From Flavitalea sp. (lineage in GTDB: Bacteria; Bacteroidota; Bacteroidia; Chitinophagales; Chitinophagaceae): DNA of 25,611 bases. This document shows positions 1 through 24,480 of this stretch, piece by piece (position 1 is the first letter of the stretch; every line of letters starts with the position of its first letter). The position numbers were made by a program, and so were the translations under genes. The stretch is taken from positions 1-25,611 of the forward strand of contig JBEVNF010000072.1 in assembly GCA_040508255.1 (NCBI GenBank), in the 5' to 3' direction. The notes below the pieces were generated by a model, which saw only the letters and a program-made list of their open reading frames with translations, was not told the origin of the DNA and searched no databases.

Positions 1-663
1 AGTGGTGATCTTGGTAACCGTTGGGAAAACCGTCCTGGCATCTATGGTCGTGCAACGGATAAGGATCGTACGCCCGAATCAGAAAAGATCTATAAGGAAG
101 AGTGGAAAGAGATCATGCAGGATCTTCACAACTTCCCGAGCATCATTGTATGGGTTCCATTCAACGAAGCATGGGGTCAGTTCAAAACAAAAGAGATCAC
201 AGAATGGACAATGGCAAAAGATCCATCACGTCTTGTTAACAGTGCAAGCGGTGGAAACTTTGAACCCGTTGGTCATATCATGGATCTTCACAACTATCCT
301 GAACCATTGATGCCTGATGCATCGATCTATGGTAAAAAGCAGATCGTTGTGCTTGGTGAGTGTGGTGGTCTTGGTTTACCTATTGAAGGACATACCTGGC
401 AGGAAAAAAACAACTGGGGTTATGTAAGTTTCAAGAACAGCGAAGAACTTCAGAAACGCTATGCAGAACATATCGCAGCAATACCAGCGCTTATCAAAGC
501 GGGCATGAGTGCCGCGGTGTATACACAAACTACAGATGTGGAAGTTGAAACCAACGGTCTTATGAGTTATGACCGTAAGGTGATCAAGATCCCTGTAGCA
601 GCGCTGAAACAAATCCACGCGCAGCTTTATCAGCAAAACATCGCCGTTAAGGCAACAAAATAG
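1..663 (+). CDS. Glycoside hydrolase family 2, C-terminal part of the TIM-barrel catalytic domain (5' end outside the window)
   Basis: Frame 1 is open from base 1 (SGDLGNRWENRPG...) to TAG at 661-663. It contains the GH2 acid/base motif WVPFNEAWGQ, the DPSRLVNSASG segment, the nucleophile motif LGECGG (usually GEF/YGG) and the C-terminal YTQTTDVEVETNGLMSYDRK motif. Confidence 0.9.
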   Translation, partial: SGDLGNRWENRPGIYGRATDKDRTPESEKIYKEEWKEIMQDLHNFPSIIVWVPFNEAWGQFKTKEITEWTMAKDPSRLVNSASGGNFEPVGHIMDLHNYPEPLMPDASIYGKKQIVVLGECGGLGLPIEGHTWQEKNNWGYVSFKNSEELQKRYAEHIAAIPALIKAGMSAAVYTQTTDVEVETNGLMSYDRKVIKIPVAALKQIHAQLYQQNIAVKATK

Positions 664-753: not shown

Positions 754-3189
754 ATGTTGAAACAACTGTTTGCACTTTCAATGAGTGCAATGTCATTTGG
801 TTTATTAAATGCACAGGAATTACGTGCACCAGCTTACCCGCTGATCACGCATGATCCATATTTCTGTATCTGGTCAAACACCAATGAACTCACAGGTTCT
901 GCAACCCGCCACTGGACAGGGGTTGATCAGTCTATCGTTGGCACTGTTACTGTTGATGGAAAGACCTTTCGTTTTCTTGGCGATAAGGAAAAGGCCTTTG
1001 CGTCAGTATTAAAAACATCCGATGAAATGCCGGCATATCAATCGGTTTATACTGAAACAGAACCATCAGGCAACTGGAAAGAGATCAATTACCAGGAGGG
1101 TGGATGGAAGAAGGGTACCGGATCTTTTGGTGATAACCGGAAGGCAGGCACAAAATGGACAAGCAAAGATCTTTGGGTTAGAAGAACGTTTACGCTTGCG
1201 ATGCTTCCTGACACAGAACTTTTTCTGAAGCTGATACACGATGATAATATCGAAGTTTATCTGAATGGTGAAGAGATTTTCAAAACCGTCGGATGGACGA
1301 ATAAATACATTTACCCGGCGATCAGCAAAGCTATCGTTTCAAAAATGAAGGCCGGTAAAAACGTTCTTGCGATCCATGTGGCGAATACTGCAGGCGGGCA
1401 GGAGCTGGATGCAGGAATTGTTTCTGAGATCATCGATAAACGTGATCCCGCCGAGCTGGTGGCAGTTCAGAAATCTGTGAAGGTAACAGCGTTATCAACC
1501 GTTTACGCTTTTACCGCGGGTGCTGTTGATCTTTCGCTGACATTTACTTCGCCGCTGCTGGCAAAGGATCTGGAGCTTCTTGCAAGACCGGTCAGCTATA
1601 TCACTACATCAGTAAAATCTAATGATGGAAAAAATCATAAGGTTCAGCTGAATTTCGGTGTTTCAACTGATCTCGCTGTGAATACACAGGTTCAGCCAGT
1701 AAAAGCCGAAAAATATGTTGCTGCGGGTTTGAATATTCTGAAAGCGGGAACGGTTGAGCAACCTGTTCTTAAAAAGAAAGGTGATGATGTGCGGATAGAC
1801 TGGGGTTACTTATATGTAGCAGTTTCGACCGCAGCCAACGCGACACAAAGCATCAAGCCTACCGGTCAGCCGGCGATCAAGGGAAATACGCTGACTGGTA
1901 AACATATTAGTCTCGACACAAGATTTGATCTTGGTGAGGTAGGGAGATTACCTGTAGGAAAGGTTATGATGATCGGTTATGATGATCTTGAATCTATTCA
2001 GTATTTCGGTACCAATCTGAAACCATGGGGGAAGAAAGATGGGATCACATTTGAACAGTTACTTGCGAAAGCTTCAAAAGAGTATAGCACAGTTACGGAT
2101 CGATGCTTTGCTTTTGACAGGGTTATTCACGAAGATGCATTGAAAGCAGGTGGTGAACAATATGCAAAACTTTGTGTGCTTGCGTATCGTCAAAGCCTGG
2201 CTGGTCATAAACTGGTGAAGAGTCCACAGGGTGAGCTGTTATTTCTTTCAAAAGAAAACTTCAGTAATGGTTCTATCAACACAGTTGATATCACTTATCC
2301 ATCTGCACCATTGTATCTCGTTTACAATCCGGAGTTATTGAAGGGCATGATGAACGGGATCTTTTATTATAGCGAAAGCGGGAAATGGGCGAAGCCATTT
2401 GCCGCTCATGATCTTGGTACCTATCCATTGGCCAATGGTCAAACCTATGGTGAAGATATGCCGGTAGAAGAGTCTGGTAATATGCTGATCCTTACAACAG
2501 CCATAGCTGCTGTTGAAGGCAACGCAGCGTATGCTAAAAAACATTGGAAGGTTCTTACAACCTGGGCTCAGTATCTGTCCAGAGAAGGTCTTGATCCGGC
2601 GAACCAACTTTGTACAGATGATTTTGCGGGTCATCTTGCCCGTAACGCCAACTTATCTGCAAAGGCAATCGTAGCGCTTCGTGGTTATTCAAAACTTGCA
2701 GAACAACTTGGCTTTGCAGATACCGCAGCTGCCTATAAAAAGATGACCGATGAAATGGTTCAGAAATGGATGCAGATGGCGGATGATGGTGATCATTATG
2801 CGCTGACTTTTGACGGTAAAGGTACCTGGAGTCAGAAGTACAATATTGTGTGGGATAAAATTCTGGGACTTGATCTTTTTCCGAAAGAGGTTTATAAAAA
2901 AGAGATGAAGTATTATCTCGGTAAACAGAATGAATTTGGTTTGCCGCTTGACAGTCGTAAGACTTATACAAAGTCTGACTGGATCATGTGGACAGCTGTG
3001 CTTTCCGACAATGATGCCGATTTCCAGGCTTTGATAGCGCCGATCTACAAATATGCAAATGAGACCTCCACACGTGTGCCGCTTAGCGACTGGCATGAAA
3101 CAACCGACGGAAAGCAGGTTGGTTTCCAGGCAAGGAGTGTGGTTGGGGGTTATTTCATTAAATTACTTCAGCAAAAACTCGCAAAGTAA
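754..3189 (+). CDS. Secreted 'glutaminase A (GtaA)'-like protein, DUF4964/DUF5127/DUF4965 architecture, with an inserted galactose-binding-like beta-sandwich; probable glycoside hydrolase-like enzyme
   Basis: 811 aa. Signal peptide ends LLNA|Q. Family motifs: LRAPAYPLITHDPYF.IWS, KKGDDVRIDWGYLY, SKENFSNGSINTVDITYPSAP, HDLGTYPLANGQ.YGEDMPVEESGNM, QLCTDDFAGH, YGLPLDSRK.YTKSDW-like, VGFQARSVVGG. Insert at about aa 78-232 (WKKG.GSFG, LWVRRTF, HDD.IEVYLNG, GKNVLAIHVAN). Confidence 0.85.
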   Translation: MLKQLFALSMSAMSFGLLNAQELRAPAYPLITHDPYFCIWSNTNELTGSATRHWTGVDQSIVGTVTVDGKTFRFLGDKEKAFASVLKTSDEMPAYQSVYTETEPSGNWKEINYQEGGWKKGTGSFGDNRKAGTKWTSKDLWVRRTFTLAMLPDTELFLKLIHDDNIEVYLNGEEIFKTVGWTNKYIYPAISKAIVSKMKAGKNVLAIHVANTAGGQELDAGIVSEIIDKRDPAELVAVQKSVKVTALSTVYAFTAGAVDLSLTFTSPLLAKDLELLARPVSYITTSVKSNDGKNHKVQLNFGVSTDLAVNTQVQPVKAEKYVAAGLNILKAGTVEQPVLKKKGDDVRIDWGYLYVAVSTAANATQSIKPTGQPAIKGNTLTGKHISLDTRFDLGEVGRLPVGKVMMIGYDDLESIQYFGTNLKPWGKKDGITFEQLLAKASKEYSTVTDRCFAFDRVIHEDALKAGGEQYAKLCVLAYRQSLAGHKLVKSPQGELLFLSKENFSNGSINTVDITYPSAPLYLVYNPELLKGMMNGIFYYSESGKWAKPFAAHDLGTYPLANGQTYGEDMPVEESGNMLILTTAIAAVEGNAAYAKKHWKVLTTWAQYLSREGLDPANQLCTDDFAGHLARNANLSAKAIVALRGYSKLAEQLGFADTAAAYKKMTDEMVQKWMQMADDGDHYALTFDGKGTWSQKYNIVWDKILGLDLFPKEVYKKEMKYYLGKQNEFGLPLDSRKTYTKSDWIMWTAVLSDNDADFQALIAPIYKYANETSTRVPLSDWHETTDGKQVGFQARSVVGGYFIKLLQQKLAK

Positions 3190-3194
3190 AAATT

Positions 3195-4367
3195 ATGACA
3201 ATGAAAAAAACAGGATTATTAGCGTCAATAGTAGCTGCACAGTTGATCGTATCGTGCGGTGATGCTCCAAAAGATTCAGAAAAACCAGGTAGTGATTCTT
3301 CTTCGGTAGCGCCCACATCATCACTGTACCCTGACAGCACTGCTTTCAGCAAAGTGATCGATGGCCAGCAAACCCATCTTTATATTTTAAAGAATGGAAA
3401 AGGCATGTCTGCCGCCATTACGAATTATGGTGGCAGGCTTGTGGGGCTGTATGTTCCTGTTGGAGATAGTACGGTTGATGTAGTAACAGGATTTAAGAGT
3501 GTTGATGATTTTGCAAATTCAACAGAGCCTTATTTTGGTGCTACCATTGGTCGTTATGGCAATCGTCTTGCAAAAGGTAAATTCTCCATTGATGGTAAAC
3601 AATATACTGTAGTTCCAAACAATGGTCAGAATGCATTGCATGGTGGTAAGAAAGGTTTCCAGTCTGTAGTGTGGAACGCAGTGCAGGAAAATGATTCAAC
3701 ACTTGAACTGAGATATCTTTCAAAAGATGGTGAAGAAGGATTTCCCGGTAACCTGACCGTGAAAGTTGTTTACACGCTTACATCTGATAACGGACTTGCA
3801 ATTTCTTACGAAGCACAAACAGATAAGAAAACAGTTGTGAATCTTACCAATCATGCTTTCTATAATCTCAATGGTGAGGGAAGTGGTACGATTTTAAATC
3901 ATACGCTTCAGATCGATGCTGATCAGTATACACCGGTAGATTCTACATTGATACCAATCGGCAAGAATTTACCTGTTGCCGGAACTCCTTTCGATTTCAG
4001 GAAACCAACTACTATTGGTGCACGCATCGAAGAGAAAAACGAGCAATTGAAAAATGGTACCGGTTATGATCATAACTATGTTGTGAATGGCAAGGGTATG
4101 AGGAAGGTTGCTTCTATTACGGGTGATAAAAGCGGTATTACCATGGATGTGCTTACTGTTGAGCCCGGTCTCCAGTTCTACAGTGGCAACTTTATGCAGG
4201 GTAAGAACACCTTCAAAGGCGGATCGAAAGATGAATTCAGAAATGCATTTTGTCTTGAGACCCAGCATTTCCCAGATTCACCAAATCAACCTTCGTTCCC
4301 GACAACTATTTTGAATCCGGGCGAAACTTACAAGACCAACACCTTGTACCTATTCAAGACAAAATAA
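3195..4367 (+). CDS. galM: Aldose 1-epimerase (mutarotase), predicted lipoprotein
   Basis: Motifs YFGATIGRYGNR, NALHGG, NLTNHAFYNL, GYDHN, FCLETQHFPDSPN. The N-terminus MTMKKTGLLASIVAAQLIVS-C is a lipoprotein signal, followed by a Ser/Pro-rich linker. An alternative ATG lies at 3201. Confidence 0.93.
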   Translation: MTMKKTGLLASIVAAQLIVSCGDAPKDSEKPGSDSSSVAPTSSLYPDSTAFSKVIDGQQTHLYILKNGKGMSAAITNYGGRLVGLYVPVGDSTVDVVTGFKSVDDFANSTEPYFGATIGRYGNRLAKGKFSIDGKQYTVVPNNGQNALHGGKKGFQSVVWNAVQENDSTLELRYLSKDGEEGFPGNLTVKVVYTLTSDNGLAISYEAQTDKKTVVNLTNHAFYNLNGEGSGTILNHTLQIDADQYTPVDSTLIPIGKNLPVAGTPFDFRKPTTIGARIEEKNEQLKNGTGYDHNYVVNGKGMRKVASITGDKSGITMDVLTVEPGLQFYSGNFMQGKNTFKGGSKDEFRNAFCLETQHFPDSPNQPSFPTTILNPGETYKTNTLYLFKTK

Positions 4368-4389: not shown

Positions 4390-5424
4390 ATGAGTGATGT
4401 TTTTTCACGTGTTACCATTCTTGATATTGCCAAAGAGCTGAATATTACTGCTGCAACGGTTTCACGCGCATTGAACGATCATCCTTCGATCAGGGAATCA
4501 ACAAAACAAATTGTAAGATTAACAGCTGATAAACTCAATTATCAGCCCAACAAACTAGCTTCTTCTCTGCGTCTCGGGAAATCAAAGATCATCGGTGTGA
4601 TCATTCCGAGCGCAGAGATCAGCTTCTTTGGTTCTGTGGTTCATGGTATTGAAAAGATCGCCAATCAGCATGGCTACAACCTGCTGATCTATCAGTCAAA
4701 CGAACAATATGAATCAGAGAAAAAAGGTATACAGACTTTTCTTCAATCACAGGTTGATGGTGTACTTGCCTCTATTTCCAAAGAAACAATTGACCTGGAC
4801 CATTTTGCAACTATCCGTAAAAGAAATGTTCCGCTGATCCTTTTCGACAGAACAAGTGATGAACTTGGCGTTTCTTCGGTTGTTGTTGATGATTATCATG
4901 GTGCTTTCGAGGCAACGAAACATCTTGCAGAACAAGGTTGTAAAAGGATCGCCCATATAGCCGGCCAGCAACATGTTGGAATTTTCAACATGCGCTTAAA
5001 GGGTTATGTGGATGCGCTGACGAGTTGCGATCTTCCTGTACAGGATGAACTTATAGTGTATGGCAATGTGAGTATCGAGAGCGGTAATCACTGTATGCGC
5101 AAATTACTTGATCTTGCATCACCGCCGGATGGGGTGTTTGCAGTAGAAGATTTCTCAGCCCTCGGGGCGATGCAGACTATCAAGGCTGCAGGTATTCAAA
5201 TGCCGGATGATATTGCTATCATTGGCTTCGCAAATGAAGCCTTCGGCGAATATTTAACACCCTCCTTATCGACCGTAAATCAGCAAACCGTACAAATGGG
5301 TGAGCTGGCTGCTGAATTGTTTTTTGACATGTCGCGTAACGGATATCATCCGGCATTCAAACCTCAGAAAAAAATCATGCAACCAACACTTGTTTGTCGC
5401 GAGTCGTCGCTTCGTCACAAATAA
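4390..5424 (+). CDS. LacI family transcriptional regulator
   Basis: N-terminal HTH VTILDIAKELNITAATVSRALND, hinge YQPNKLASSLR, and a periplasmic-binding-protein-like core ending PSLSTVNQ...GELAA...LVCRES. Confidence 0.95.
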   Translation: MSDVFSRVTILDIAKELNITAATVSRALNDHPSIRESTKQIVRLTADKLNYQPNKLASSLRLGKSKIIGVIIPSAEISFFGSVVHGIEKIANQHGYNLLIYQSNEQYESEKKGIQTFLQSQVDGVLASISKETIDLDHFATIRKRNVPLILFDRTSDELGVSSVVVDDYHGAFEATKHLAEQGCKRIAHIAGQQHVGIFNMRLKGYVDALTSCDLPVQDELIVYGNVSIESGNHCMRKLLDLASPPDGVFAVEDFSALGAMQTIKAAGIQMPDDIAIIGFANEAFGEYLTPSLSTVNQQTVQMGELAAELFFDMSRNGYHPAFKPQKKIMQPTLVCRESSLRHK

Positions 5425-5463: not shown

Positions 5464-5485
5464 GGCATTGCAAAATCAAATCCAT

Positions 5486-7564
5486 ATGATCAGATCTTTT
5501 TTCGTTTTATTTTTAATGTTGCCGTTTCTCGCCGGGGCTCAATTGAAACCTGATGCTTCGGGGTTTAAGAAGTCTTCAAACGCTGCCTGGTCAGTAAAAG
5601 GAAATGAACTTACATTGAACTGGCCGGTTTCAAAACAGCAGAAGGGAAGGGTGGTGATAGATATGAGTGAAGGCGCTCCTCTTATTAAGGCCCTGCAATT
5701 GGTTAAGGGTAAAACCGTTTCTGATATTACCACAAATGTGGATCCCGCTTTTGTACTGACAATAGGTAAGAGAGATCTTGTTTCGCAGAATGGATGGAAC
5801 ATTTTCTTTGACAGAGTTCCTACAAAACCATTCAGGTCTCACAAAGTTGAGTTTCAAAAGAAATCAGTTGCTATCATTTCTGAGGGCAACAGAACAGTGC
5901 TTCGGATCGGGTCTGTGAGTGCACCCGCATTTACAGGCGATCTTGAAATTACTGTTTATCCGCAAAGCCCGCTTGTGAATATTGCTGCAGTAATGACAAC
6001 GAATGTTGATTCAACTGCTATTCTTTATGATGCAGGACTTACTGCCTCAAAGTCTGCCTGGGATACTATCTCATGGTCAAATGTTTATGGTGAAATGCAG
6101 CATCATGCTCCCGGTGAGTTTGATACCGCTACCAACAATGCTGTGAAGTATCGTACCATATTGGGTAAGGTAAAGAATGGAACGCTCGCTGTATTTCCGG
6201 CACCACATCAATATTTTTATCCGCTCGATGAAGCTTTCAACCTTAATTTTACCTGGTCAGGAAATAACTATCGCAGGATGCTTGATGGCTTTGGATTGGG
6301 TATACGCCAGGATCTTTATGGTGATCGTCGTTTTGTACCATGGTTCAATGCTCCGCCGGGCACAAAACAACGCATGAATTTCTATTGCCTGCTCAGCGAA
6401 GGCGACCAGGCGGCAACGCTGGAAGAAGTAAAGAAATTTACTCACAGTGATACCTATCCGAAAATTGCAGGTCATCAACGTATGTCAAGTCACTTTCATA
6501 ATGAATACGTGATGAATACGATCATACCAGGCAAGCCTGTTCCTGATACTCCGAATTTCGTAAAGGTGTTCAAAACACTTGGTGTTGATATCGTTCACCT
6601 TGGTGAGTTTCACTATACCGCACATCCGCGTGGTCCGGATGATCAGAGACTTAATGAACTGAATGAGCTTTTTAAAATGTGTCAGCGTTATTCTGATGGC
6701 AGGTTCCTATTGCTGCCGGGTGAAGAACCAAATGAATTTTATGGTGGTCACTGGTTACAATTTTTTCCAAAACCGGTTTACTGGATCATGTCGCGTGCGA
6801 AAGATCTCCCGTTTGTTTCTGAACATCCGGACTATGGAAAAGTATATCGTATAAGGAACAGCGAAGAAATGCAGAAGCTGCTCGAAGTTGAAAAGGGACT
6901 GGCATGGACCGCGCATCCGCGTACAAAAGGTTCAACAGGTTATCCGGATAAGTATAAGAACGAACCATTTTTTAAATCTGAGACATTTATGGGTGCAGCC
7001 TGGAAGCCAATACCGGCTGATCTTTCTGTTGACAGACTTGGAATTCGTGTACTTGATCTTATCGATGACATGAACAACTGGGGACTAAAAAAGAAAGTGA
7101 TCGCAGAAGCTGATCTCTTCACCATCGAACCGGAAAATGAAATGTATGCGCATCTGAATGTGAACTACCTGCGGATGGATAAACTTCCTGAATACAAAGA
7201 TGGATGGCAGCCTGTGATCGATGCTATGCACAACGGAAGTTTCTTTTCTTCAACAGGTGAGATCGTTATCCCTGAGTTCAAAGCAAATGGAGGTTTATCC
7301 GGCGATACTGTTGCGCTTGCGGCCAATGGAAATGCCGATATCAACTTTGATGTTGAGTGGACGTTCCCGTTAAACTTCGCATTGCTTGTGTCAGGAGACG
7401 GATCTAAAGTTTATAAAGAGCGAATCGATCTGAGAAATACAACGGCATTCGGCAAAGAAAAATTCAGAAAACAACTTAACCTGAAAGGACGCAAATGGGT
7501 GCGCCTCGAAGTTTGGGATGCTGCTGTGAATGGTGCTTTTACACAAACAATCTGGCTAAAATAA
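5486..7564 (+). CDS. Secreted protein of unknown function with a PHP-like (CehA/McbA-type) metallohydrolase domain
   Basis: The ATG at 5486 gives a clean signal peptide MIRSFFVLFLMLPFLAGA|Q (the ORF track starts at TTG 5468). The N-terminal half is beta-rich. The C-terminal half has PHP-type ligand motifs SSHFHNE (6491-6499), HLGEFH, LLPGEEP, GGHW, WTAHP and AEAD, then a small C-terminal beta domain (WVRLEVWD..VNGAFTQ). Confidence 0.7.
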   Translation: MIRSFFVLFLMLPFLAGAQLKPDASGFKKSSNAAWSVKGNELTLNWPVSKQQKGRVVIDMSEGAPLIKALQLVKGKTVSDITTNVDPAFVLTIGKRDLVSQNGWNIFFDRVPTKPFRSHKVEFQKKSVAIISEGNRTVLRIGSVSAPAFTGDLEITVYPQSPLVNIAAVMTTNVDSTAILYDAGLTASKSAWDTISWSNVYGEMQHHAPGEFDTATNNAVKYRTILGKVKNGTLAVFPAPHQYFYPLDEAFNLNFTWSGNNYRRMLDGFGLGIRQDLYGDRRFVPWFNAPPGTKQRMNFYCLLSEGDQAATLEEVKKFTHSDTYPKIAGHQRMSSHFHNEYVMNTIIPGKPVPDTPNFVKVFKTLGVDIVHLGEFHYTAHPRGPDDQRLNELNELFKMCQRYSDGRFLLLPGEEPNEFYGGHWLQFFPKPVYWIMSRAKDLPFVSEHPDYGKVYRIRNSEEMQKLLEVEKGLAWTAHPRTKGSTGYPDKYKNEPFFKSETFMGAAWKPIPADLSVDRLGIRVLDLIDDMNNWGLKKKVIAEADLFTIEPENEMYAHLNVNYLRMDKLPEYKDGWQPVIDAMHNGSFFSSTGEIVIPEFKANGGLSGDTVALAANGNADINFDVEWTFPLNFALLVSGDGSKVYKERIDLRNTTAFGKEKFRKQLNLKGRKWVRLEVWDAAVNGAFTQTIWLK

Positions 7565-7578
7565 ATAACGAACTCTGA

Positions 7579-9654
7579 ATGAAGCTTAGAAAATTTAAAA
7601 CAGCAATCATTATCGCAACATTGCTGCGATCGTTTTCGGTATTTGCACAGACTGCGGATGTTACCACCTCAAAGGCGAATTTCAGAACAGCTCCTTTGCC
7701 AACGGGTTTGATAAAAGATAAATACGCTGAGCTACCGCTTGGTGCAATAAAACCAAGCGGCTGGCTCAAAGGTCAGCTTGAGATAATGAACAAAGGAACT
7801 ACCGGGCATCTTGATGAGGTATATCGCAAGGTCCAGAACGATAATGGGTGGCTTGGTGGTAGAGGCGATGGCTGGGAGGAAACACCTTATTGGCTGGATG
7901 GGGCAGTGCCATTGGCTTATTTGCTGGATGATGCCGTATTAAAAGAAAAGGTTCTGAAATACATCAACTGGACAATCGACAATCAGCGTCCCTCCGGATA
8001 TTTTGGCCCCCTTACAAAATGGGAACGTGAAACAGGTAAAAAGGTTTCAGCGGAAGAATGTGATATGGGTGAAGACTGGTGGCCAAAAATGGTGATGCTG
8101 AAAGTTGTTCAGCAATACTATACCGCAACAAATGATAAGCGTGTAATTCCATTTCTTACAAAATATTTTGATTACCAGTTGAAGACACTGCAAGCCTGTC
8201 CCATCAAAAAGTGGACAGAATGGGCGGAGTCGCGTGGTGCTGATAATATGCTTGTGATCCAATGGCTGTATACTAAAACAAAAAATCCTTCATTACTAAA
8301 ACTTGCATCTACTATCCAATCACAATCACTTGGATGGAGCAAAATGTTTTTCGAGCGTGATTGGGTGATCAATGCTGCAACGCTTCAGAACTCTGATAAA
8401 TGGATGACAAGACATGGAGTGAATGTTGCGATGGGTATCAAGGATCCTGCAGTAAACTATCAGCGCACCGGTGATAAAAAATATCTTGAGGCGTTGAATG
8501 TTGGTTTTCATGACCTGATGACCTTGCATGGTTTGCCTTATGGTGTTTTCTCTGCCGATGAAGATCTTCATGGTAATGATCCCACACAGGGTGTAGAACT
8601 GTGCGCAACGGTTGAGGCAATGTTTTCACTTGAACATGCTATTGGCGTTACGGGGAGTACAAAATATATGGATGCATTGGAGCGTATGACCTTTAATGCA
8701 CTTCCAGGGCAGACAACTGATGATTATAATAACAAACAATACTTCCAGATAGCGAACCAGGTTCATATCAAACGTGGTGTGTTCAATTTTTCTTTACCAT
8801 TTGAAAGGGAGATGAATAACGTGCTTGGTATGAGGGCAGGTTATACCTGTTGTCTCGCAAACATGCACCAGGGCTGGACAAAGTTCACTTCGCATTTGTG
8901 GTATGGAGCTGATGGTAATGGCATTGCAGCGCTTCACTATAGTCCCAGTGTTGTAAAAACAAAACTTGGTGCCGCTAAAAAGGAAGTGACAATCACAGAA
9001 AACACTTCTTATCCTTTTGATGATAAGATTGAATTCAATTTCGCAATGACCGGGACAAATGCATTTCCATTCGATGTGAGAATCCCGGAATGGTGTGATA
9101 ACGCTGTCCTGGAAGTGAATGGTCTGAGCCAGGGAATAGTAAAGCCGGGTGAGATGATCAGGATGTCAAGAACCTGGAAAAACGGCGATAAGGTTTCGCT
9201 GATCCTTCCCATGAAAGTGCGTACTTCAAATTGGGGACGGAACTCAAGATCTGTGGAACGCGGCCCGCTTGTATATGCACTTAAGTTGGGGGAGCAGTGG
9301 GAAAAAGATAGTATCAAAGAAGAGGGTGAGTACTTCAATGTGTTTACCAAAGATCCATGGAATTATGGTTTGGTAGAAGCGGTGATCAGGTCGCCGGTGG
9401 AGCAGGTTGGGGTGAAAGTTATCAGTAAACCTGGACAGGGATTTGTCTGGAATCTTGCGAATGCACCGGTTGAACTTACCGCGAAAGCGAAGAAGATCCC
9501 GGATTGGAAAATTGTGAATGATGTAGCTCCACAGCCGGTTACAGCGAGGGAAGGATTGTATAAAGGCAAGGTGGAAAGTGAGGTTGAAACGATAACGTTG
9601 GTGCCTATAGGATGTACGAAGGTGAGGATTGTGGCGTTTCCGGTAGTACCGTAA
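7579..9654 (+). CDS. GH127/GH146-type (beta-L-arabinofuranosidase family) cysteine glycosidase, secreted
   Basis: Signal peptide ends SVFA|Q. Motifs LPLGAIKPSGWL..QL, GGRGDGWEETPYWLDG, HGVN, FSADE, E-L-C (8596-8604) and T-C-C (8848-8853), matching the Zn-binding Glu/Cys/Cys-Cys set of this family. Also T.YPFD, RIPEW and RGPLVYAL in the C-terminal sandwiches. Confidence 0.88.
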   Translation: MKLRKFKTAIIIATLLRSFSVFAQTADVTTSKANFRTAPLPTGLIKDKYAELPLGAIKPSGWLKGQLEIMNKGTTGHLDEVYRKVQNDNGWLGGRGDGWEETPYWLDGAVPLAYLLDDAVLKEKVLKYINWTIDNQRPSGYFGPLTKWERETGKKVSAEECDMGEDWWPKMVMLKVVQQYYTATNDKRVIPFLTKYFDYQLKTLQACPIKKWTEWAESRGADNMLVIQWLYTKTKNPSLLKLASTIQSQSLGWSKMFFERDWVINAATLQNSDKWMTRHGVNVAMGIKDPAVNYQRTGDKKYLEALNVGFHDLMTLHGLPYGVFSADEDLHGNDPTQGVELCATVEAMFSLEHAIGVTGSTKYMDALERMTFNALPGQTTDDYNNKQYFQIANQVHIKRGVFNFSLPFEREMNNVLGMRAGYTCCLANMHQGWTKFTSHLWYGADGNGIAALHYSPSVVKTKLGAAKKEVTITENTSYPFDDKIEFNFAMTGTNAFPFDVRIPEWCDNAVLEVNGLSQGIVKPGEMIRMSRTWKNGDKVSLILPMKVRTSNWGRNSRSVERGPLVYALKLGEQWEKDSIKEEGEYFNVFTKDPWNYGLVEAVIRSPVEQVGVKVISKPGQGFVWNLANAPVELTAKAKKIPDWKIVNDVAPQPVTAREGLYKGKVESEVETITLVPIGCTKVRIVAFPVVP

Positions 9655-9814: not shown

Positions 9815-11311
9815 ATGACAAACGGCACACTGCTCCAGTTTTTTCACTGGTATATCCCAACGGACGGAAGCTTATGGAACGACGCAAAAGACAAAGCGCA
9901 ACAACTTGCCGACCTCGGCATTAATTCAGTTTGGTTGCCACCTGCATACAAAGGAGAACAGGGTGCAGAATCTTCGGGCTACAATGTTTACGATATATAT
10001 GATCTTGGAGAGTTTGACCAGAAAGGTTCAGTAAGAACCAAGTTTGGTACAAAAGAAGAATATCGTGCTGCCGTGGATACGCTTCATGAAAAAGGAATAC
10101 AGGTTTATGCCGATATAGTTGTGAATCACATGGGTGGCGCGGATGAAACTGAGAAAGTCTGGGTCCGCCGCGTAGATCCGGACAATCGAAATGAATTCAC
10201 CAGCGAGCCTTTTGAGATCGAAGCATTTACAAAATTTACATTTCCTGGCAGGGGCGGTAAGTATTCTGAGTTTGTTTGGAATTATACCTGTTTCACCGGA
10301 ATTGACTATGCAAAAGATCTGGATGAAACAGCGATTTTCAGTATTCTCAATGATTACGGGGAAGGTTGGGAAGATGTGATCGATACAGAAAAGGGGAACT
10401 ACGACTATCTTATGTTCAGCGATATAGAATTCCGTAACAAGGAAGTCAGGGAAGAAATTAAGCGCTGGGGTAAATGGTATCTGGAACAGATCCCCTTCGA
10501 TGGTGTACGGCTCGATGCTGTTAAACATATCGCACCGCAATTTTTCAACGAATGGCTGGACTACATGAGAACGATCAAGCCTGATCTTTTTGCAGTAGGA
10601 GAGTATTGGGCACCAGGTGAGCTGCCATTATTATTGAAATACATTGAAGCGACAAATGAAAGGATGAGTCTTTTCGATGCATCTCTGCATCACAATCTTC
10701 ACAATGCTTCAAAACAGGGAAAAGATTTTGATCTTACAACAATCTTTAATGACAGTCTTGTTGGGGTAAAACCTCAGCTTGCAGTTACAGTTGTAGATAA
10801 TCACGATACACAACCTTTGCAATCATTGGAGGCTCCGGTGGAGGCCTGGTTTAAACCGCATGCCTATTCGCTTATCCTGCTTCGCGAAGGCGGTTACCCG
10901 ACAGTGTTCTACCCGGATCTGTTTGGCGCACACTATACCGATAAAGGGAATGATGGGAACGAGCATGAGATTTTTCTTGACAAAGCCAGGCATATTGAAG
11001 AACTACTGATGGCAAGAAAGCTTTATGCCTATGGACAGCAACGTGACTATTTCGATCATCCCAACTGTATTGGTTGGACCCGCGAAGGCGTAGAGGAAAA
11101 TTCAAACTCCGGTTGTGCCGTTTTGCTCAGCAATAGTGAAGACGGATTTAAGTCTATGGAGATCGGTAAACAATTTACCGGCAAGCCGTTCGTTGATATG
11201 CTTGGAACTATCGGAGATGAAGTTGTAATTAATCAAGACGGGTGGGGTGAGTTCCGGGTTAACGCCGGCGCAATAGCTGTTTGGGTTTTAAAAGAAGCCT
11301 TACCACAATGA
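9815..11311 (+). CDS. amyA: Alpha-amylase, GH13 (subfamily 5 type), cytoplasmic
   Basis: Starts NGTLLQFFHWY with no signal peptide. Conserved regions YADIVVNH, GVRLDAVKHI, AVGEYW and VVDNHDTQP are present with the catalytic D/E/D intact. Confidence 0.93.
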   Translation: MTNGTLLQFFHWYIPTDGSLWNDAKDKAQQLADLGINSVWLPPAYKGEQGAESSGYNVYDIYDLGEFDQKGSVRTKFGTKEEYRAAVDTLHEKGIQVYADIVVNHMGGADETEKVWVRRVDPDNRNEFTSEPFEIEAFTKFTFPGRGGKYSEFVWNYTCFTGIDYAKDLDETAIFSILNDYGEGWEDVIDTEKGNYDYLMFSDIEFRNKEVREEIKRWGKWYLEQIPFDGVRLDAVKHIAPQFFNEWLDYMRTIKPDLFAVGEYWAPGELPLLLKYIEATNERMSLFDASLHHNLHNASKQGKDFDLTTIFNDSLVGVKPQLAVTVVDNHDTQPLQSLEAPVEAWFKPHAYSLILLREGGYPTVFYPDLFGAHYTDKGNDGNEHEIFLDKARHIEELLMARKLYAYGQQRDYFDHPNCIGWTREGVEENSNSGCAVLLSNSEDGFKSMEIGKQFTGKPFVDMLGTIGDEVVINQDGWGEFRVNAGAIAVWVLKEALPQ

Positions 11312-11364: not shown

Positions 11365-11763
11365 ATGGACAAACTCAAGATTCTGATCGCTGAGAATGAT
11401 GAAGATGAACAGGATTTTTTAAAGGAAGGATTCGATAGCACAGAGAATTTTACGGTGGTTGCAATGGCAAAAAATGCCTATCAGCTTTACGACCTGCTTG
11501 GTAATGCAGGATCCGATCTCCCTGACCTGATCTTAACTGATCTGAATATGGAAGGGCAGAGCGGGTATGATGTATTAAGGTATATCAACGCCCACGAACT
11601 GTACTACAAAATACCTGTCATTGTTTACACAGGATCGTTACTTGACAGCATAGTCACAAAATGTATGGAGCTCGGTGCTCTGCAAGTTGTGATGAAACCT
11701 TCGAGTCTTGATGGTTATCAAAAGTTTCCCGGCCAACTACACGAAATTTTACTTGACAGATAA
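11365..11763 (+). CDS. Single-domain response regulator (receiver only)
   Basis: 132 aa: ILIAENDED, PDLILTDLNM (phospho-Asp), IPVIVYTGS, VMKP. No output domain. Confidence 0.9.
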   Translation: MDKLKILIAENDEDEQDFLKEGFDSTENFTVVAMAKNAYQLYDLLGNAGSDLPDLILTDLNMEGQSGYDVLRYINAHELYYKIPVIVYTGSLLDSIVTKCMELGALQVVMKPSSLDGYQKFPGQLHEILLDR

Positions 11764-11764
11764 T

Positions 11765-12166
11765 TTATACTTCGAAGAAAGTATTGGTGTCTGTACGCAT
11801 AATAACATTGCGGATAATATTTGTAAGTTTCGGAATATCCGCCGCTTTGCGAACACAACCGGCAGCACCTAAAGCAAGTGCCCTGTTGCAAGCTTCTGTG
11901 TTTATCCCATTCGAATACATGATCACCGGAACATTGGCAACATTATCTATCTTTTTGATTTCCTGCAAGCACTCGTAGCCATCCATCCGGGGCATATTGA
12001 TGTCAAGGAAGATCACATCAGGCGTTTTATCCTGAAGAATGTCCAGTGCTTTTGAAGGACTATTTGCCCATGTACAGGTAAAACGCGGATCCACCTCAGT
12101 CAGGGCCTCTGCAAAGATGTCCAGTTCATCCGGATCATCATCAATTAGAAAAAAATTTGTATACAT
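11765..12166 (-). CDS. Single-domain response regulator (receiver only)
   Basis: 133 aa: FLIDDDPDE, PDVIFLDINMPRMDG, VPVIMYSN, VRKA. No output domain. Confidence 0.92.
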   Translation of the reverse strand: MYTNFFLIDDDPDELDIFAEALTEVDPRFTCTWANSPSKALDILQDKTPDVIFLDINMPRMDGYECLQEIKKIDNVANVPVIMYSNGINTEACNRALALGAAGCVRKAADIPKLTNIIRNVIMRTDTNTFFEV

Positions 12167-12267
12167 TTCGACGGTCTGCTCCTTTCTGCTTCTTAACCAA
12201 CATACCGGATCAGACTCATCGTCGTGTCCGTACCGAAGAATACTATCGGAGTATTTGAGTTATGCGT

Positions 12268-12297
12268 CAAAAATAAGGAGAATTTGGAGAAAACAAA
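12268..12297 (-). promoter_or_regulatory. Putative Bacteroidota housekeeping promoter for the - strand receiver gene
   Basis: On the - strand, TTTG (12297-12294), an 18-nt spacer, then TATTTTTG (12275-12268) match TTTG-N19-21-TAnnTTTG with a slightly short spacer. Confidence 0.45.
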
Positions 12298-12450
12298 GTA
12301 TTCGGCCCAAAGTGTAACTGGTTTTCCCCATATTCAAGTAAAATTCAGCATGTTATCCACGTTTTGATAAATAGTAGTTTCCAATTATAATAATTGGGAA
12401 AAACACCCGTTATCTGGGGAAGAAACTAACTAGACTTTCCAAGACTTCCT

Positions 12451-14562
12451 ATGACGTCCCTGAAGACCTTTCCGTTAAACCCAAGACGATTCGGTTCATT
12501 CCTGGTTTTGCTTGCCCTGGTGGCAGCAGGCGTCCTTTATGTATTCCCTGAAAAGAACAAAAAGGTTGTCCGTACATCGGAATTTCTCAATTTTGATTTC
12601 AAGAAGATCAGCGACCTGATCGATGACAGTGCGCGTTACTTCAGAGCCGCAGATTCCATTTTCTCAAAACTACCAAAGGGCCAGGATCTGTACGAAAACT
12701 ATGCTTGTAAGCGCGGATATTTTCTCTTTATCAAGCGTGATCCGTGTAAAACACTCGCCTATACCGACAGTATGCTCAACATCCTTGAGGATCTGAAGGA
12801 TGATCCTGCATATTATTTCTGGTATTCAACAGCCCTTACTTATAAAGGAGATGACCTGCGTGCGCTCAACAGGCACAGCGAAGCACTTGGATTCTATTTC
12901 CTTGCGCGGGAAGCTATTCAGAAAACAGGGGATAGCTGTCTTTACGGAAGTTATAGTGCAACCCTCGGTATGGTTGCCTATGAGCAAAAGAATTATGTGG
13001 ATGCCGGTGAATATTTCAAGCAGGCATTTAATTATCCAAATTACTGTGAGGACCGTGACAATGGTAATACAACACATATGCAGTTTGCCCGTCAGCAAAC
13101 TATTCTTGATAATATTGGATTGTGTTACAGCAAGCGGGGTGTAAGCGACAGCGCGCTTTTCTATTTTGACAGTGCCCTGAATTATATCAGGAACAATTAT
13201 ATGATGGCTTCCACTTTTGATGATAATTATGACCGGCATATCGACACTATCCTGCTTGCAAAGGCACGTGGGGTGATCTTTGGTAATAAGGCTGTGGATC
13301 TGATCAAAACTAAAAAAACAGCAGAGGCAGAAGTCCTTCTGAAGGAAAGCATACGTCTCAACAGTCTTCCGTTTCACGCGCTTGAAGATGTACCTTATTC
13401 GCAGGTAAAGCTTGCGCGTTTGTATCTCGATCAGTCGCGCAATAAAGAGGCTGGTTCAGTGCTCACTGCACTGAAAAAAGGACTTGATACTTTTCCCAAT
13501 ACTGAGAATCTAAAAAACTGGAACCAGCTCCAGGCAAAATATCTGGCAAGTACAGGTGATATGGCCGGTGCAAACGAAAGGTTGAACCGCTATCTGTTCA
13601 TGAAAGATTCTATCGATTCAAAAACTCAGCGACTAACGTCTTCGGATATACGAAAAGAGTTTGCACATCTGAAAACAGAATACCAGCTTCATAATCTTCA
13701 GAAAGAAGATGCACTTAAGAAACGATACCTGCTTGTTGCGTTTGCAGGCATCGTACTTTCTACCATAATCGGTTTGCTGATCTGGAGAAACTACAAACAA
13801 TCACGCCGGAACGTTGATGCGCTGGAAGCATTGAACAGGCAGGTTCGCAGAAAGAACATCCATCTTCAGAATACACTGAGTTCACTTGAAAAAAGCCATG
13901 AAGATAACAGCCGGATGATGAAGATCGTAGCGCATGATCTTCGCAATCCTATTGGTGGTATAGCAGGACTTTCGGCAATCATGCTGAAAGAAGAAAACTT
14001 TCCTGCTGCACATCGTGGTATGCTCGAGATGATCCACAAATCAAGTAATCACTCGATAGAACTTATCCAGGATCTTGTACATATCCACAACTCTGCAATG
14101 GACAGGCATAATGAACCCATGGAGCTTCGTGATCTGCTTAGTTATTGTATTGAGATGTTGCATCTGAAAAGTGAAGAGAAGAATCAACGGATCTTCCTTG
14201 TGGGCAGCAGCGCAATGGTTAAGGGTGATCGTGATAAGTTATGGAGAGTATTTAATAACCTGATCAGCAATGCCATCAAGTTCAGTCCAAACGATACTGA
14301 GATCAGCGTTTCACTGGAGGTGAAGGATAGTGTTGTGACTGTTAGTGTACAGGATCAGGGAATCGGTGTGCCTGAATCCCTTCGTGATAAAATGTTTATG
14401 ATGTCGGGAGAAGCCAAGCGTCGTGGTACTGCAGGTGAGCCGTCGTTTGGTCTTGGACTTGGCATCTCGAAACAGATCGTTGAAGCAAACAATGGAAAGA
14501 TCTGGTACCAGAATGCCACGGGGCAGGGTGCCGTGTTCAATGTGTCGTTCCCGCTGGCTTAA
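12451..14562 (+). CDS. Membrane sensor histidine kinase with a periplasmic TPR-like sensor
   Basis: TM1 near the N-terminus, helical TPR-like repeats (ALGFYFLA, AGEYFKQA, LDNIGLCY..ALFYFDSAL), TM2 YLLVAFAGIVLSTIIGLLIW, H-box VAHDLRNP, N-box NNLISNAIKFS, G1 DQGIG, G2 FGLGLGIS. Confidence 0.93.
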   Translation: MTSLKTFPLNPRRFGSFLVLLALVAAGVLYVFPEKNKKVVRTSEFLNFDFKKISDLIDDSARYFRAADSIFSKLPKGQDLYENYACKRGYFLFIKRDPCKTLAYTDSMLNILEDLKDDPAYYFWYSTALTYKGDDLRALNRHSEALGFYFLAREAIQKTGDSCLYGSYSATLGMVAYEQKNYVDAGEYFKQAFNYPNYCEDRDNGNTTHMQFARQQTILDNIGLCYSKRGVSDSALFYFDSALNYIRNNYMMASTFDDNYDRHIDTILLAKARGVIFGNKAVDLIKTKKTAEAEVLLKESIRLNSLPFHALEDVPYSQVKLARLYLDQSRNKEAGSVLTALKKGLDTFPNTENLKNWNQLQAKYLASTGDMAGANERLNRYLFMKDSIDSKTQRLTSSDIRKEFAHLKTEYQLHNLQKEDALKKRYLLVAFAGIVLSTIIGLLIWRNYKQSRRNVDALEALNRQVRRKNIHLQNTLSSLEKSHEDNSRMMKIVAHDLRNPIGGIAGLSAIMLKEENFPAAHRGMLEMIHKSSNHSIELIQDLVHIHNSAMDRHNEPMELRDLLSYCIEMLHLKSEEKNQRIFLVGSSAMVKGDRDKLWRVFNNLISNAIKFSPNDTEISVSLEVKDSVVTVSVQDQGIGVPESLRDKMFMMSGEAKRRGTAGEPSFGLGLGISKQIVEANNGKIWYQNATGQGAVFNVSFPLA

Positions 14563-15231: not shown

Positions 15232-15302
15232 ATTCTGTGAATTGTTAATGGTGTAACAGATTGGTCGGTCAATTGTTTGATGGTTTTGCCCCCGCATTAT
15301 CT

Positions 15303-15310
15303 TAACTTTG
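15303..15310 (+). promoter_or_regulatory. Putative -7 promoter element for fabF
   Basis: TAACTTTG is an exact TAnnTTTG match 44 nt before the fabF ATG. No TTTG at canonical -33 spacing was found. Confidence 0.55.
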
Positions 15311-15354
15311 CGCCTGAATTTTTAAGAGGCAAAAATCAACATCACAATACTTCT

Positions 15355-16605
15355 ATGAAAAGAGTAGCAATTACCGGGCTCGGTTGTATCACTCCATTGG
15401 GCAATTCAGTTGCTGAATTCTGGGAAAAGATACTTGCAGGAGAGAGCGGCGCGGGGCCGATCACAAAGTTTGACGCATCAAAATTCAAGACCCGCTTTGG
15501 ATGCGAGGTCAAGACATTTGATGCCGAGGCATATTTTGAAAAAAAAGAACTCAAAAAATACGATCTGTTCACCCAGTACGCAGTTGCGGCGAGTGACCAG
15601 GCGATCAAGGCTTCCGGTCTGGATTTCACCACCATGTCAGACGCAGACAGGTCCGAAGTAGGGGTGATCTGGGCTTCAGGCAATGGCGGTATTGGTACAT
15701 TCGAACAGCAACTGGAAGATTTTCATAAGGGAGATGGTACCCCAAGGTTCAACCCTTTCTTTATTCCAAAAATGATTGTGGATATCGCGGCGGGGGTGAT
15801 CTCAATCCGTCACAAACTACATGGACCTAACTATTGTACCGTTTCAGCCTGTGCTTCTTCAAATACCGCTATTATAGCTGCCTTTGATACGATCAGGCTG
15901 GGTAAGGCAACGATCATGGTTGCCGGCGGTTCCGAGGCTGCGATCACGCCTGCATCAGTTGGTGGATTCAATGCGGCCCAGGCGCTTTCAAAAAATAATG
16001 ATAATCCGCTTACTGCTTCAAGACCGTTTGATAAAACACGGGATGGATTCGTGATCGGCGAAGGTGCGGGTGCGCTTATCCTTGAAGATTATGATCATGC
16101 AATCAGCAGAGGTGCAAAGATCTATGCCGAGATGGTTGGTGGCGGAATGGCCGCTGATGCATACCATCTTACAGGTACTCCTCCGGATGGCTTCGGTGCT
16201 TCACTTGGCATCCGCAAGGCGCTTGCTGAAGCTGGCATTACGCCTGATAAGATCGACTATATCAACGCACACGCTACATCCACACCCCTGGGTGATATTT
16301 CTGAGCTGATAGGTATCAGCAATGTATTTGGAGATCATAAGGTTGCGATCAGTTCAACCAAATCAATGACGGGTCACCTGTTAGGTGGTGCCGGTGCAAT
16401 TGAAAGCATTGTGAGTATCTGCTCTGTGATGTATGATAAGGTTCCTGCAACCATCAATACAACAGAGATCGATGAACAGATCCCTGCCGGTTTGAACATT
16501 GTAATAGGCAAATCAATCGATCAGAAAGTGAATTATGCGCTTAATAATACTTTCGGGTTTGGTGGACATACCGCTACTGCGATCTTCAAAAAACACGAAC
16601 CATAA
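15355..16605 (+). CDS. fabF: Beta-ketoacyl-ACP synthase II
   Basis: Starts MKRVAITGLGCITPLGN. Catalytic Cys in TVSACASS, His in YINAHATST, His in KSMTGHLLG, and C-terminal NNTFGFGGH. The true start is ATG 15355, not 15277. Confidence 0.95.
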   Translation: MKRVAITGLGCITPLGNSVAEFWEKILAGESGAGPITKFDASKFKTRFGCEVKTFDAEAYFEKKELKKYDLFTQYAVAASDQAIKASGLDFTTMSDADRSEVGVIWASGNGGIGTFEQQLEDFHKGDGTPRFNPFFIPKMIVDIAAGVISIRHKLHGPNYCTVSACASSNTAIIAAFDTIRLGKATIMVAGGSEAAITPASVGGFNAAQALSKNNDNPLTASRPFDKTRDGFVIGEGAGALILEDYDHAISRGAKIYAEMVGGGMAADAYHLTGTPPDGFGASLGIRKALAEAGITPDKIDYINAHATSTPLGDISELIGISNVFGDHKVAISSTKSMTGHLLGGAGAIESIVSICSVMYDKVPATINTTEIDEQIPAGLNIVIGKSIDQKVNYALNNTFGFGGHTATAIFKKHEP

Positions 16606-20275: not shown

Positions 20276-20300
20276 TTGCAGACAGTTAGCATAAAAATTG

Positions 20301-20327
20301 AAAGTCCCGTATTTGCGGGACTTTTTT
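20301..20327 (+). terminator. Intrinsic terminator after the TonB-dependent receptor
   Basis: AAAGTCCCGT-ATTT-GCGGGACTTT followed by further Ts. Confidence 0.85.
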
Positions 20328-20372
20328 GTGTGGTTAGGCTTTATCTTTAAGTCATAATTCAAACTTTTAGCT

Positions 20373-21212
20373 ATGAAATGGATGGGCAGACGCGAAAGCG
20401 GTAATGTTGAAGATCGCAGGGGTAGTGGTGGTGGCAGGATGGCCGCAGGTGGAGGCATTGGTGCACTGGTGATAGCCGCGATCATTTATCTTTTGGGGGG
20501 CGATCCTTCGCAGGTGTTGCCAACTGAACCGTCTTCACAGCCCCAGGAGCAGTCATCTGCTGCCAAGGCGGAAGATGATCAGCTTGCGAAATATCTTTCA
20601 GTCGTGCTTGCAGACACCGAAGATGTATGGGATTCGCTTTTTACGGCAAGTGGTAAACGTTATGAACATCCGGGTCTTGTCCTGTTTTCAGGAAACGATC
20701 AGTCAGGCTGCGGTCCGGCAGATGCGGGGATGGGCCCTTTTTATTGCCCTGCAGACAACAAGATTTACATTGATCTTTCTTTTGTGCAGGAACTGCAGGA
20801 GCGTTTTGGGGCAAAGCAGGGTGATTTTCCGATCGCGTACGTACTTGCACATGAAGTTGGTCACCATGTTCAGCATTTGCTTGGTATTACTCAGAAAACG
20901 GCCAGGCTTCGTCAACAGCTTACTTCTACAGAGTATAATAAAGTCAGTGTTCAGGTAGAATTACAGGCAGATTTCCTGGCAGGGGTTTGGGTACACTACA
21001 ATCAGAAGATGAAGAACGTACTTGAGCCCGGCGATATTGAAGAAGCATTGAGTGCTGCTGCCGCAGTAGGTGATGATAAAATTCAACAACGTTCTTCGGG
21101 CAATATACGCCCGGATCTTTTTACACATGGTACCGCTGCGCAGCGTATGGAGGCTTTTACCAAAGGTTATAACACCGGTGATCTTTCACAGAGTCCTGCA
21201 GTTTCTAATTAA
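20373..21212 (+). CDS. Neutral zinc metallopeptidase (YpfJ/Zn_peptidase family), membrane-anchored
   Basis: N-terminal RRESGNVEDRRG, a Gly-rich TM segment, GPFYCPAD..IYID, zinc motif LAHEVGHHVQ, ELQADFLAG, and FTHGT..QR. Confidence 0.92.
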   Translation: MKWMGRRESGNVEDRRGSGGGRMAAGGGIGALVIAAIIYLLGGDPSQVLPTEPSSQPQEQSSAAKAEDDQLAKYLSVVLADTEDVWDSLFTASGKRYEHPGLVLFSGNDQSGCGPADAGMGPFYCPADNKIYIDLSFVQELQERFGAKQGDFPIAYVLAHEVGHHVQHLLGITQKTARLRQQLTSTEYNKVSVQVELQADFLAGVWVHYNQKMKNVLEPGDIEEALSAAAAVGDDKIQQRSSGNIRPDLFTHGTAAQRMEAFTKGYNTGDLSQSPAVSN

Positions 21213-24463: not shown

Positions 24464-24480
24464 AAAGATTCTTGAGTAAG

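Follow-up and report, generated by a model that had tools for sequence, protein, structure and literature searches.

The gene examined here lies on the forward strand, at positions 5486-7564, of a 25,611-nucleotide stretch of DNA from Flavitalea sp. (Chitinophagaceae; GenBank assembly GCA_040508255.1, contig JBEVNF010000072.1), which was analysed at its full length and is called the window below. The source genome is a metagenome-assembled genome, 63 % complete. We propose, with slightly better than even confidence, that the product of this gene is an exported three-domain PHP-type metalloenzyme hydrolysing a sugar-derived substrate. An earlier note, made from the sequence of the window alone, had described a 692-aa exported protein with a beta-rich N-terminal half and six His/Glu/Asp motifs in the order of a PHP domain, embedded among glycosidases, and had suggested that it might remove phosphodiester, phosphocholine or similar decorations from a glycan. 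The present analysis combines the reading of the gene, structural models of its product, the conservation of its family and the neighbourhoods of its homologues.

Gene, export signal and domain layout

The gene consists of a single uninterrupted frame of 692 codons and a stop. The longest open reading frame (ORF) opens upstream, at a TTG at 5468; the ATG at 5486 was taken as the start because it is from this point that the homologues align. No overlapping ORF of at least 100 aa was found on the opposite strand across the gene. The N-terminus (aa 1-19, 5486..5542, forward strand) looks like a type I signal peptide, since a basic start is followed by a hydrophobic core and by an A-G-A/Q site, with no lipobox Cys; cleavage is predicted before Q19/L20 (5540-5545). 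Of the 77 full-length orthologues, 70 begin with a similar hydrophobic segment, often with A-Q at its end, and Q19 is invariant in the 21 close homologues of one alignment (A1). We take such an A-Q end as a possible indication of an N-terminal pyroglutamate once the peptide is cleaved. These sequence features mark the product as exported, probably to the periplasm. The length, the frame and the signal peptide given in the earlier note are thus all borne out, as is the beta-rich character of the N-terminal half, which is nearly all beta strand in the model.

Beyond the signal peptide, three domains can be delimited on the forward strand. The first (aa ~30-315, 5573..6430) is all-beta in the full-length AlphaFold2 model (predicted local distance difference test, pLDDT, 76; predicted template modelling score, pTM, 0.79) and is identified by Foldseek and VIA-align as a galactose-mutarotase-like beta-supersandwich, with matches at Z 12-16 to a polysaccharide lyase of family PL26, the N-domain of glycoside hydrolase (GH) family GH36, the C-domain of GH38, the P1 domain of YidC and aldose 1-epimerases. 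It is followed by a candidate PHP-fold metal barrel (aa 322-592, 6449..7261), proposed from the model, VIA-align, hhalign and conservation, and by a C-terminal beta-sandwich (aa 593-692, 7262..7561), which shows nothing but strands in DSSP and holds an invariant W671-x-R673 ... W677-D678 motif. Conservation was counted over 41 family sequences, down to 28 % identity. In the N-terminal domain, W46, R223 and Q295 are invariant across the family, and R96, D109 and H241 are nearly so.

The family to which this protein belongs is large. It comprises at least 3100 clusters at 90 % identity (among 8000 candidates scored) and 1183 clusters at 50 % identity (E <= 1e-3), the full-length architecture being retained down to ~27 % identity; the names given to its members are nearly all "hypothetical". 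The family is mostly found in Bacteroidota, Verrucomicrobiota and Planctomycetota, with named carriers in Chitinophagaceae, Sphingobacteriaceae, Cytophagales, Flavobacteriia, Verrucomicrobiota and Planctomycetota, and the nearest named relatives of the target are from Flavitalea, at ~65-67 % identity. Natural fusions join family members to DUF4861 (protein P0124, 989 aa), DUF4350 (ThuA-like), Ig and LamG domains. Searches with sequence models returned little for this family: the target fails both the PHP (PF02811) and the DUF3604 (PF12228) models of Pfam; the 41 family members gave isolated single Pfam matches at E 0.05 or weaker, with none to the PHP clan at E <= 1; and the sequences of the PDB yielded one chance match (E 0.23) to the target alone and none to the family profile. 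The sole match to a family model is to NCBIfam NF038032 (CehA/McbA metallohydrolase), at E 2.4e-12, over residues 402-692 only and below the curated cut-off of that model; the target scored 44.8 bits in the genome search with it. Among 20 relatives searched, three genomes (G001, G002 and G007) hold a frame of 704-786 aa with the same partial, sub-cut-off match, and these frames are taken, on similarity, to be orthologues of the target. Some target orthologues are named "CehA/McbA family metallohydrolase domain-containing protein" by the Prokaryotic Genome Annotation Pipeline.

Fold, homology and conserved residues of the C-terminal half

Matches to the N-terminal supersandwich dominated the fold search with the full-length model, and residues 322-692 were for this reason modelled separately, with 41 diverse sequences (pLDDT 93.9, pTM 0.93). 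The PHP fold that the earlier note had suspected in the catalytic half, together with the (beta/alpha)7 barrel for which it had suggested structure prediction, is recovered in this model as a distorted (beta/alpha)7-type barrel resembling solved PHP domains. In a VIA-align search of 48,161 PDB chains, the best matches are BVU_3505 (3e38, Z 15.0), PsfC (7rty, 14.0), TM0559 (2anu, 13.8) and EndoQ (5zb8, 12.1), followed at Z 8-10 by the PHP domains of BAD_1165, PolC, PolIII-alpha and RNase AM (3o0f, 9.6; 9etk, 3f2b, 2hpi). Every barrel match with Z above 9 is to a PHP domain, GH barrels being absent from this range; only the flanking beta domains resemble the accessory domains of GHs. VIA-align was needed to bring out these matches, since the C-terminal model gave a weak Foldseek result against the PDB, limited to 3o0f and 3e0f (E ~3e-3 to 9e-3). 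Outside the family, the neighbours in AlphaFold-DB and the ESM-Atlas bear the names CehA/McbA, PHP or DUF3604.

The relationship is also detected at the level of sequence profiles. The hhalign comparison of the family profile with four bona fide NF038032 domains from related genomes gave a probability of 95.9 % (E 5e-9) over 295 columns, covering the stretch from the HxH motif through the W-x-R strand of the sandwich and ending at model residue 356, which corresponds to aa 677. The 3e38 alignment likewise spans model residues 1-334 and thus continues past the barrel into the beta-sandwich. The barrel and the sandwich are one module, as in BVU_3505 and the CehA/McbA proteins, and within the PHP superfamily this module has its homologues in the CehA/McbA and BVU_3505 branch; judged by sequence, the CehA/McbA proteins are the closest relatives of the target. 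It is on the VIA-align matches to PHP domains and on the hhalign comparison with the NF038032 domains that the PHP fold is inferred. The same comparison with the PHP domain of DnaE from the same genome gave a probability of 0.3 %, with the HxH motif alone aligned, and no direct residue map onto canonical PHP enzymes can therefore be drawn.

All six motifs of the earlier note are present: HFH at 336-338, H.GEFH at 371-376, GEE at 412-414, GGH at 420-422, AHP at 476-478 and EAD at 541-543. Conservation across the family selects particular residues within them. H336 and H338, which close strand 330-337 and align with the HxH of CehA/McbA, are conserved in 40 of 40 sequences, while E414, H422, H477, D/E543 and E592 are each conserved in 41 of 41; E/D374 is kept in 40 of 41 and H376 in 34 of 41. 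H371 (15/41) and E541 (29/41) are not conserved family-wide. The candidate metal ligands are then H336, H338, E374, H376, E414, H422, H477, D543 and E592, which amount to five His and four carboxylates. According to DSSP, they stand just after successive strands of the barrel, with the exception of H422, which lies at the start of a strand; barrel enzymes usually have their active site arranged in this way. By hhalign, H336/H338 pair with the HxH, E414 with the E, H422 with the GH, H477 with the AHP and D543 with the D that are invariant in CehA/McbA. The invariant T-G-E592 comes after the last barrel strand and is not alignable to canonical PHP sequences. Further invariant residues are Y454, K481, D512, Y554 and Y561 in the barrel and R673 and D678 in the sandwich. 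The His residues are presumed to cluster in space. In the shallow full-length model, confidence is low at just these conserved loops, in each of the three domains, which would fit a single composite site where the domains meet.

Genomic neighbourhoods of the family and of the target

The neighbourhoods of homologues, whose analysis the earlier note had proposed, were studied in 80 genome loci with 10-kb flanks, in which ORFs were called and clustered and representative members annotated by Pfam. The loci are phylogenetically non-independent and many singleton ORFs are unannotated, so that the partner counts are lower bounds. Glycan or sugar-redox genes occur within 10 kb in 53 of the 80 loci and within 3 kb in 47; in 31 loci such a gene is directly adjacent on the same strand. 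Homologues are thus not mostly located outside carbohydrate loci, an outcome that the earlier note would have counted against its reading. Several partners are regularly co-directional with the target gene: GH5-like (17/17), GH127-like (15/16), DUF3823 (10/10) and GH2 (8/8).

The partner genes fall into several contexts. In polysaccharide utilisation loci (PULs) of Sphingobacteriaceae (a), the order is SusD-DUF3823-GH2-GH127-like-GH43-like-BNR-GH5-like-GH43-target, the target coming last; the GH43 partner resembles arabinanases and xylanases. In Chitinophagaceae loci similar to the window (b), GH2, GH127-like, GtaA-like, GH5-like and LacI genes precede the target. Six loci of Cytophagales and Flavobacteriia (c; L039, L042-L044, L055 and L056) have their partners ~3-10 kb upstream, directly before the target. 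These partners are ThuA-DUF7133-cupredoxin together with ThuA in L039, L042-L044 and L055, and a Gfo/Idh/MocA gene with a xylose-isomerase-like TIM gene in L039, L043, L044, L055 and L056. SusD and/or DUF3823 lead in four of the six, a classical GH is absent upstream in four of the six, and no DUF1080 gene was seen among the annotated neighbours; these loci may encode an oxidative route of glycan breakdown. Operons of the type KduD-KduI-DUF4861-target (d) are present in L013 (7866-12085) and L058, and together with the DUF4861 fusion they link the family to the metabolism of unsaturated uronates. In Spirosoma (e), a PF05426 lyase-like gene overlaps downstream (L016, L019) and a divergent GFO gene is found (L016, L019, L065). 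Scattered partners (f) include CE15, SMP-30 lactonase, GH92, GH31, MR_MLE and fucose isomerase. As a separate observation, UPF0261 and PEP_hydrolase-like genes are paired beside the target orthologue in two loci (L055, 12080-14298; L042, 2136-5902), with an MFS transporter between them in L042.

Within the window, glycan-active genes do surround the target, as the earlier note had stated, and all those described here up to 11311 are on the forward strand. At the window edge stands the truncated 3' end of a GH2-like gene (1..663), which clusters with an ORF of L029 matching the Pfam GH2 TIM-barrel domain. It is followed, on the basis of Pfam matches, by a GtaA-like six-hairpin protein (754-3189), an aldose 1-epimerase (3195-4367) and a LacI-family regulator (4390..5424; LacI and Peripla_BP) that ends 61 bp upstream of the target. 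The gene order GtaA-like to aldose 1-epimerase is repeated in the Chitinophagaceae loci L023, L024 and L029, and a LacI cluster is found within 10 kb in seven of the 80 fetched loci as well as in the window. Downstream of the target, at a distance of 14 bp, a divergent GH127-like gene (7579..9654; Pfam GH127 catalytic and middle domains) is probably co-transcribed with it; a GH127-like neighbour occurs in 15 of the 80 fetched loci in addition to the window. A gene of the GH13 alpha-amylase family (9815..11311; Pfam Alpha-amylase and its C-terminal domain) begins 160 bp past the GH127-like gene.

Some of these neighbours deserve a description of their own. The GtaA-like protein, encoded in the same operon as the target, has 811 aa and the layout DUF4964-DUF5127-GtaA ("glutaminase A-like"); it (cluster 18) is a further PUL enzyme and, besides the window, accompanies the target in four of the 80 fetched loci, in Chitinophagaceae and Flavobacteriia. 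Neither the GtaA-like nor the GH5-like partners have sequence relatives among PDB structures. The GH127-like gene matches Pfam GH127 at E 1e-27 and the NCBIfam model "aceric acid hydrolase" with 94 bits against a cut-off of 950, and in a sequence search it matches PDB 5mqo and 4qjy at E 1e-15 with only ~240 residues covered. Its specificity probably differs from that of the classical beta-L-arabinofuranosidases, to which its sequence appears only distantly related. The rest of the window encodes, on the forward strand (11365-14562, 15277-16605 and 17870-21212), a stand-alone response regulator, a TPR-containing histidine kinase and a beta-ketoacyl synthase, together with an OMP_b-brl_3 outer-membrane protein carrying a carboxypeptidase-regulatory-like domain and a Zn_peptidase. 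A SusD/TonB-receptor pair is located on the minus strand at 22745-25611 and extends beyond the window end.

Candidate reactions and known systems

We propose that the supersandwich, the PHP barrel and the beta-sandwich form one exported metalloenzyme, in which two or three divalent metals at the barrel mouth would activate water. The activated water would hydrolyse a bond, presumably of ester type, in an imported oligosaccharide or sugar derivative delivered by a polysaccharide utilisation system, and W46, R223, Q295, H241, R673 and D678 of the two beta domains would help to shape the substrate pocket. The analysis itself shows the fold, the homology, the conservation, the export signal and the operon contexts; metal binding, the geometry of the pocket and the bond cleaved are what we infer. 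The reaction that we favour, and that we hold to be somewhat probable, is the removal of an ester-linked non-sugar substituent, acyl or phospho, from an oligosaccharide. This probability is divided between a carboxylic or acyl ester, slightly preferred because CehA/McbA act on carbamate esters although unlikely when taken by itself, and a phosphoester, which is a little less probable. As doubtful as the phosphoester is a non-classical glycoside-cleaving, lyase or hydratase role, which is retained because of the ThuA, GFO and xylose-isomerase-like genes of the context (c) loci. Lactone hydrolysis would be improbable, as would any other reaction.

One alternative is a phosphodiesterase or phosphomonoesterase stripping phosphate-linked decorations (phosphodiester bridges, phosphocholine or phosphoethanolamine), for example from a fungal galactofuranose polymer. 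It would agree with the PHP fold, with the presence of RNase AM, EndoQ and polymerase PHP domains among the structural matches, and with the fact that the PHP enzymes characterised so far are mostly phosphoesterases; the conserved basic residues R96, R223, R479, K481, R521 and R673 would suit an anionic group, and furanosides are conceivable substrates of the GH43, GH2 and GH5-like partners. However, a phosphate-metabolism partner recurs in none of the 80 neighbourhoods, the nearest sequence family with a name is one of carbamate-ester hydrolases, the terminal Asp-x-His is not found and none of the tests run identified a galactofuranose substrate, all of which leaves this explanation unlikely in our view. 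The interpretation of the earlier note consequently divides into two parts: the PHP fold and the linkage to glycan loci stand, whereas its phosphodiester, phosphocholine and galactofuranose targets receive no specific pointer, in view of the missing phosphate-related partner and of the nearest named relatives being carbamate-ester hydrolases. We accord the same low probability to a new metal-dependent enzyme that cleaves glycosides as a hydrolase, lyase or hydratase. The layout of supersandwich, barrel and sandwich is that of GH31, GH36 and GH97-type glycosidases, the ThuA-like DUF4350 is found as a fusion partner within the family, and four of the six context (c) loci have no classical GH upstream, with DUF1080 not among the annotated neighbours. 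In one possible version, the protein would act in a periplasmic oxidative 3-keto-glycoside route, in the place of the DUF1080 protein of the Bacteroides system; the published pathway (bioRxiv 10.1101/2024.03.25.586180) depends throughout on exported, metal-dependent enzymes, namely a Gfo/Idh/MocA oxidoreductase, a lyase of the "sugar phosphate isomerase" kind and a lyase/hydratase with DUF1080. Nevertheless, a PHP-fold glycosidase or lyase is not known, such contexts make up only ~13 of the 80 loci, and in most PULs a full set of ordinary GHs stands beside the target. A classical GH36/GH31-like glycoside hydrolase does not fit, the high-scoring matches of the barrel being PHP domains and not the (beta/alpha)8 barrels of GHs.

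Two further functions were considered. A periplasmic sugar-lactone hydrolase acting downstream of sugar dehydrogenases could be read from loci with cytochrome-c or cupredoxin-linked dehydrogenase-like, SDR, AKR, GFO and MR_MLE neighbours, and the related amidohydrolase superfamily does include lactonases with a metal barrel; yet an SMP-30-type lactonase already adjoins the gene in three Verrucomicrobiota loci, and the large sugar-binding N-terminal domain would suit oligosaccharides better than small lactones, so that we rate this function as quite improbable. A lead towards D-apionate lactonase was dropped (Foldseek TM-score 0.2, mainly over the N-terminal domain; Atlas score 0.78; no literature found). 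It is highly improbable that the protein hydrolyses xenobiotic carbamates as CehA/McbA do, or that it is a binding protein devoid of catalysis. The former would be in line with the sequence and profile similarity to NF038032, but the score remains under the cut-off, the N-terminal architecture is different and the family is ancient, widespread and PUL-linked; the invariant set of candidate ligands argues against the latter.

Several points nonetheless weigh against the proposal of a metalloenzyme hydrolysing a sugar-derived substrate. No Pfam family fits the target at E <= 0.01, while the earlier note had been unable to assign it to a CAZy family, and its NF038032 score is 46.9 bits against a curated cut-off of 80. 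The family is without a characterised or solved member, and it was not found to have been studied in the literature on CehA/McbA, DUF3604 and PHP proteins with PULs. The last motif of canonical PHP enzymes is Asp-x-His; no match to this terminal motif was found in the target or its family, and because of this the metal stoichiometry may differ from that of the canonical enzymes. The phosphoesterase majority among characterised PHP enzymes weighs against the preference for an acyl ester. At the genomic level, 27 of the 80 loci have no annotated carbohydrate gene, the partner genes differ widely by lineage and distant family members often stand alone, for which reasons one conserved glycan substrate for the whole family is unlikely. 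Some degree of chance proximity to genes for carbohydrate-active enzymes is moreover expected in PUL-rich genomes, and no one glycan can be defined from partners so varied.

Among Bacteroidota, Verrucomicrobiota and Planctomycetota from soil and water, PULs hold many conserved genes whose chemistry is still to be assigned. A reaction assigned to this family could either enlarge glycan degradation by a new esterase or phosphoesterase or reveal a non-classical cleavage of glycosides, and it would give the CehA/McbA-like PHP branch, so far represented by pesticide hydrolases only, its first native function. It can be imagined, although we give this little weight, that the family represents an unrecognised carbohydrate-active class built on a PHP metal barrel, and hence a new family of the carbohydrate esterase (CE), GH or polysaccharide lyase (PL) type. 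If one version of this were true, the PHP protein would be the missing cleaving or hydrating part of PULs that lack a classical glycosidase and hold only SusC/D, DUF3823, ThuA-type, Gfo/Idh/MocA and xylose-isomerase-like genes, which would then encode an oxidative route with a PHP-fold partner. The target is, in sum, a moderately interesting protein of predicted function and a good candidate for enzyme discovery.

The comparison with known systems places the target between several groups of proteins. BVU_3505 (3E38) and TM0559 (2ANU), which are among its best structural matches, come from structural genomics and are described as PHP-like "metal-dependent phosphoesterases". The entry title of 3E38 refers to a two-domain protein, and the continuation of the match into the sandwich of the target suggests the same layout; however, neither protein has a sequence similarity to the target that phmmer or hmmsearch would detect, and the solved chains are small (343 residues for 3E38, 224 for 2ANU), without the 300-aa supersandwich of the target and with functions that are likewise not known. 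Canonical PHP proteins (PF02811: TrpH/RNase AM, histidinol phosphatase and the polymerase PHP domains), most of the characterised ones being metal-dependent phosphoesterases, have in common with the target the barrel fold and the HxH at the end of strand 1, and carry later Glu and His ligands. In contrast to them, the target is without a PF02811 match and its candidate ligands appear richer in carboxylates. The domain order of supersandwich, barrel and beta-sandwich is the same as in GH36/GH31-type glycosidases and the PL26 lyase, with Z 14-16 for the N-domain; nevertheless, the whole-chain TM-scores are only ~0.2, and where GH36 and GH31 have a (beta/alpha)8 barrel with a carboxylate nucleophile and an acid/base, the target has a PHP-type barrel with candidate metal ligands. 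Our literature searches brought up no description of a supersandwich joined to a CehA/McbA-type PHP module in PULs.

The likeness to CehA/McbA (NF038032; carbaryl and carbofuran hydrolases) is that of profile-level homology, with aligned HxH, Glu, GH, AHP and Asp motifs and with export in common. McbA and CehA are exported hydrolases that cut the carbamate ester of carbaryl, and three His of the PHP-like domain of McbA are essential for this hydrolysis (PMC8292978). The differences lie in the other parts of the protein and in its surroundings. Bona fide CehA/McbA proteins of related genomes bear an N-terminal PD40 propeller or CarboxypepD_reg domain where the target bears its supersandwich, and the family of the target has invariants of its own, unlike CehA/McbA, in E592, K481, D512, Y454, Y554 and Y561. 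Whereas the CehA/McbA enzymes belong to the catabolism of aromatic xenobiotics, the context of the target is the catabolism of glycans.

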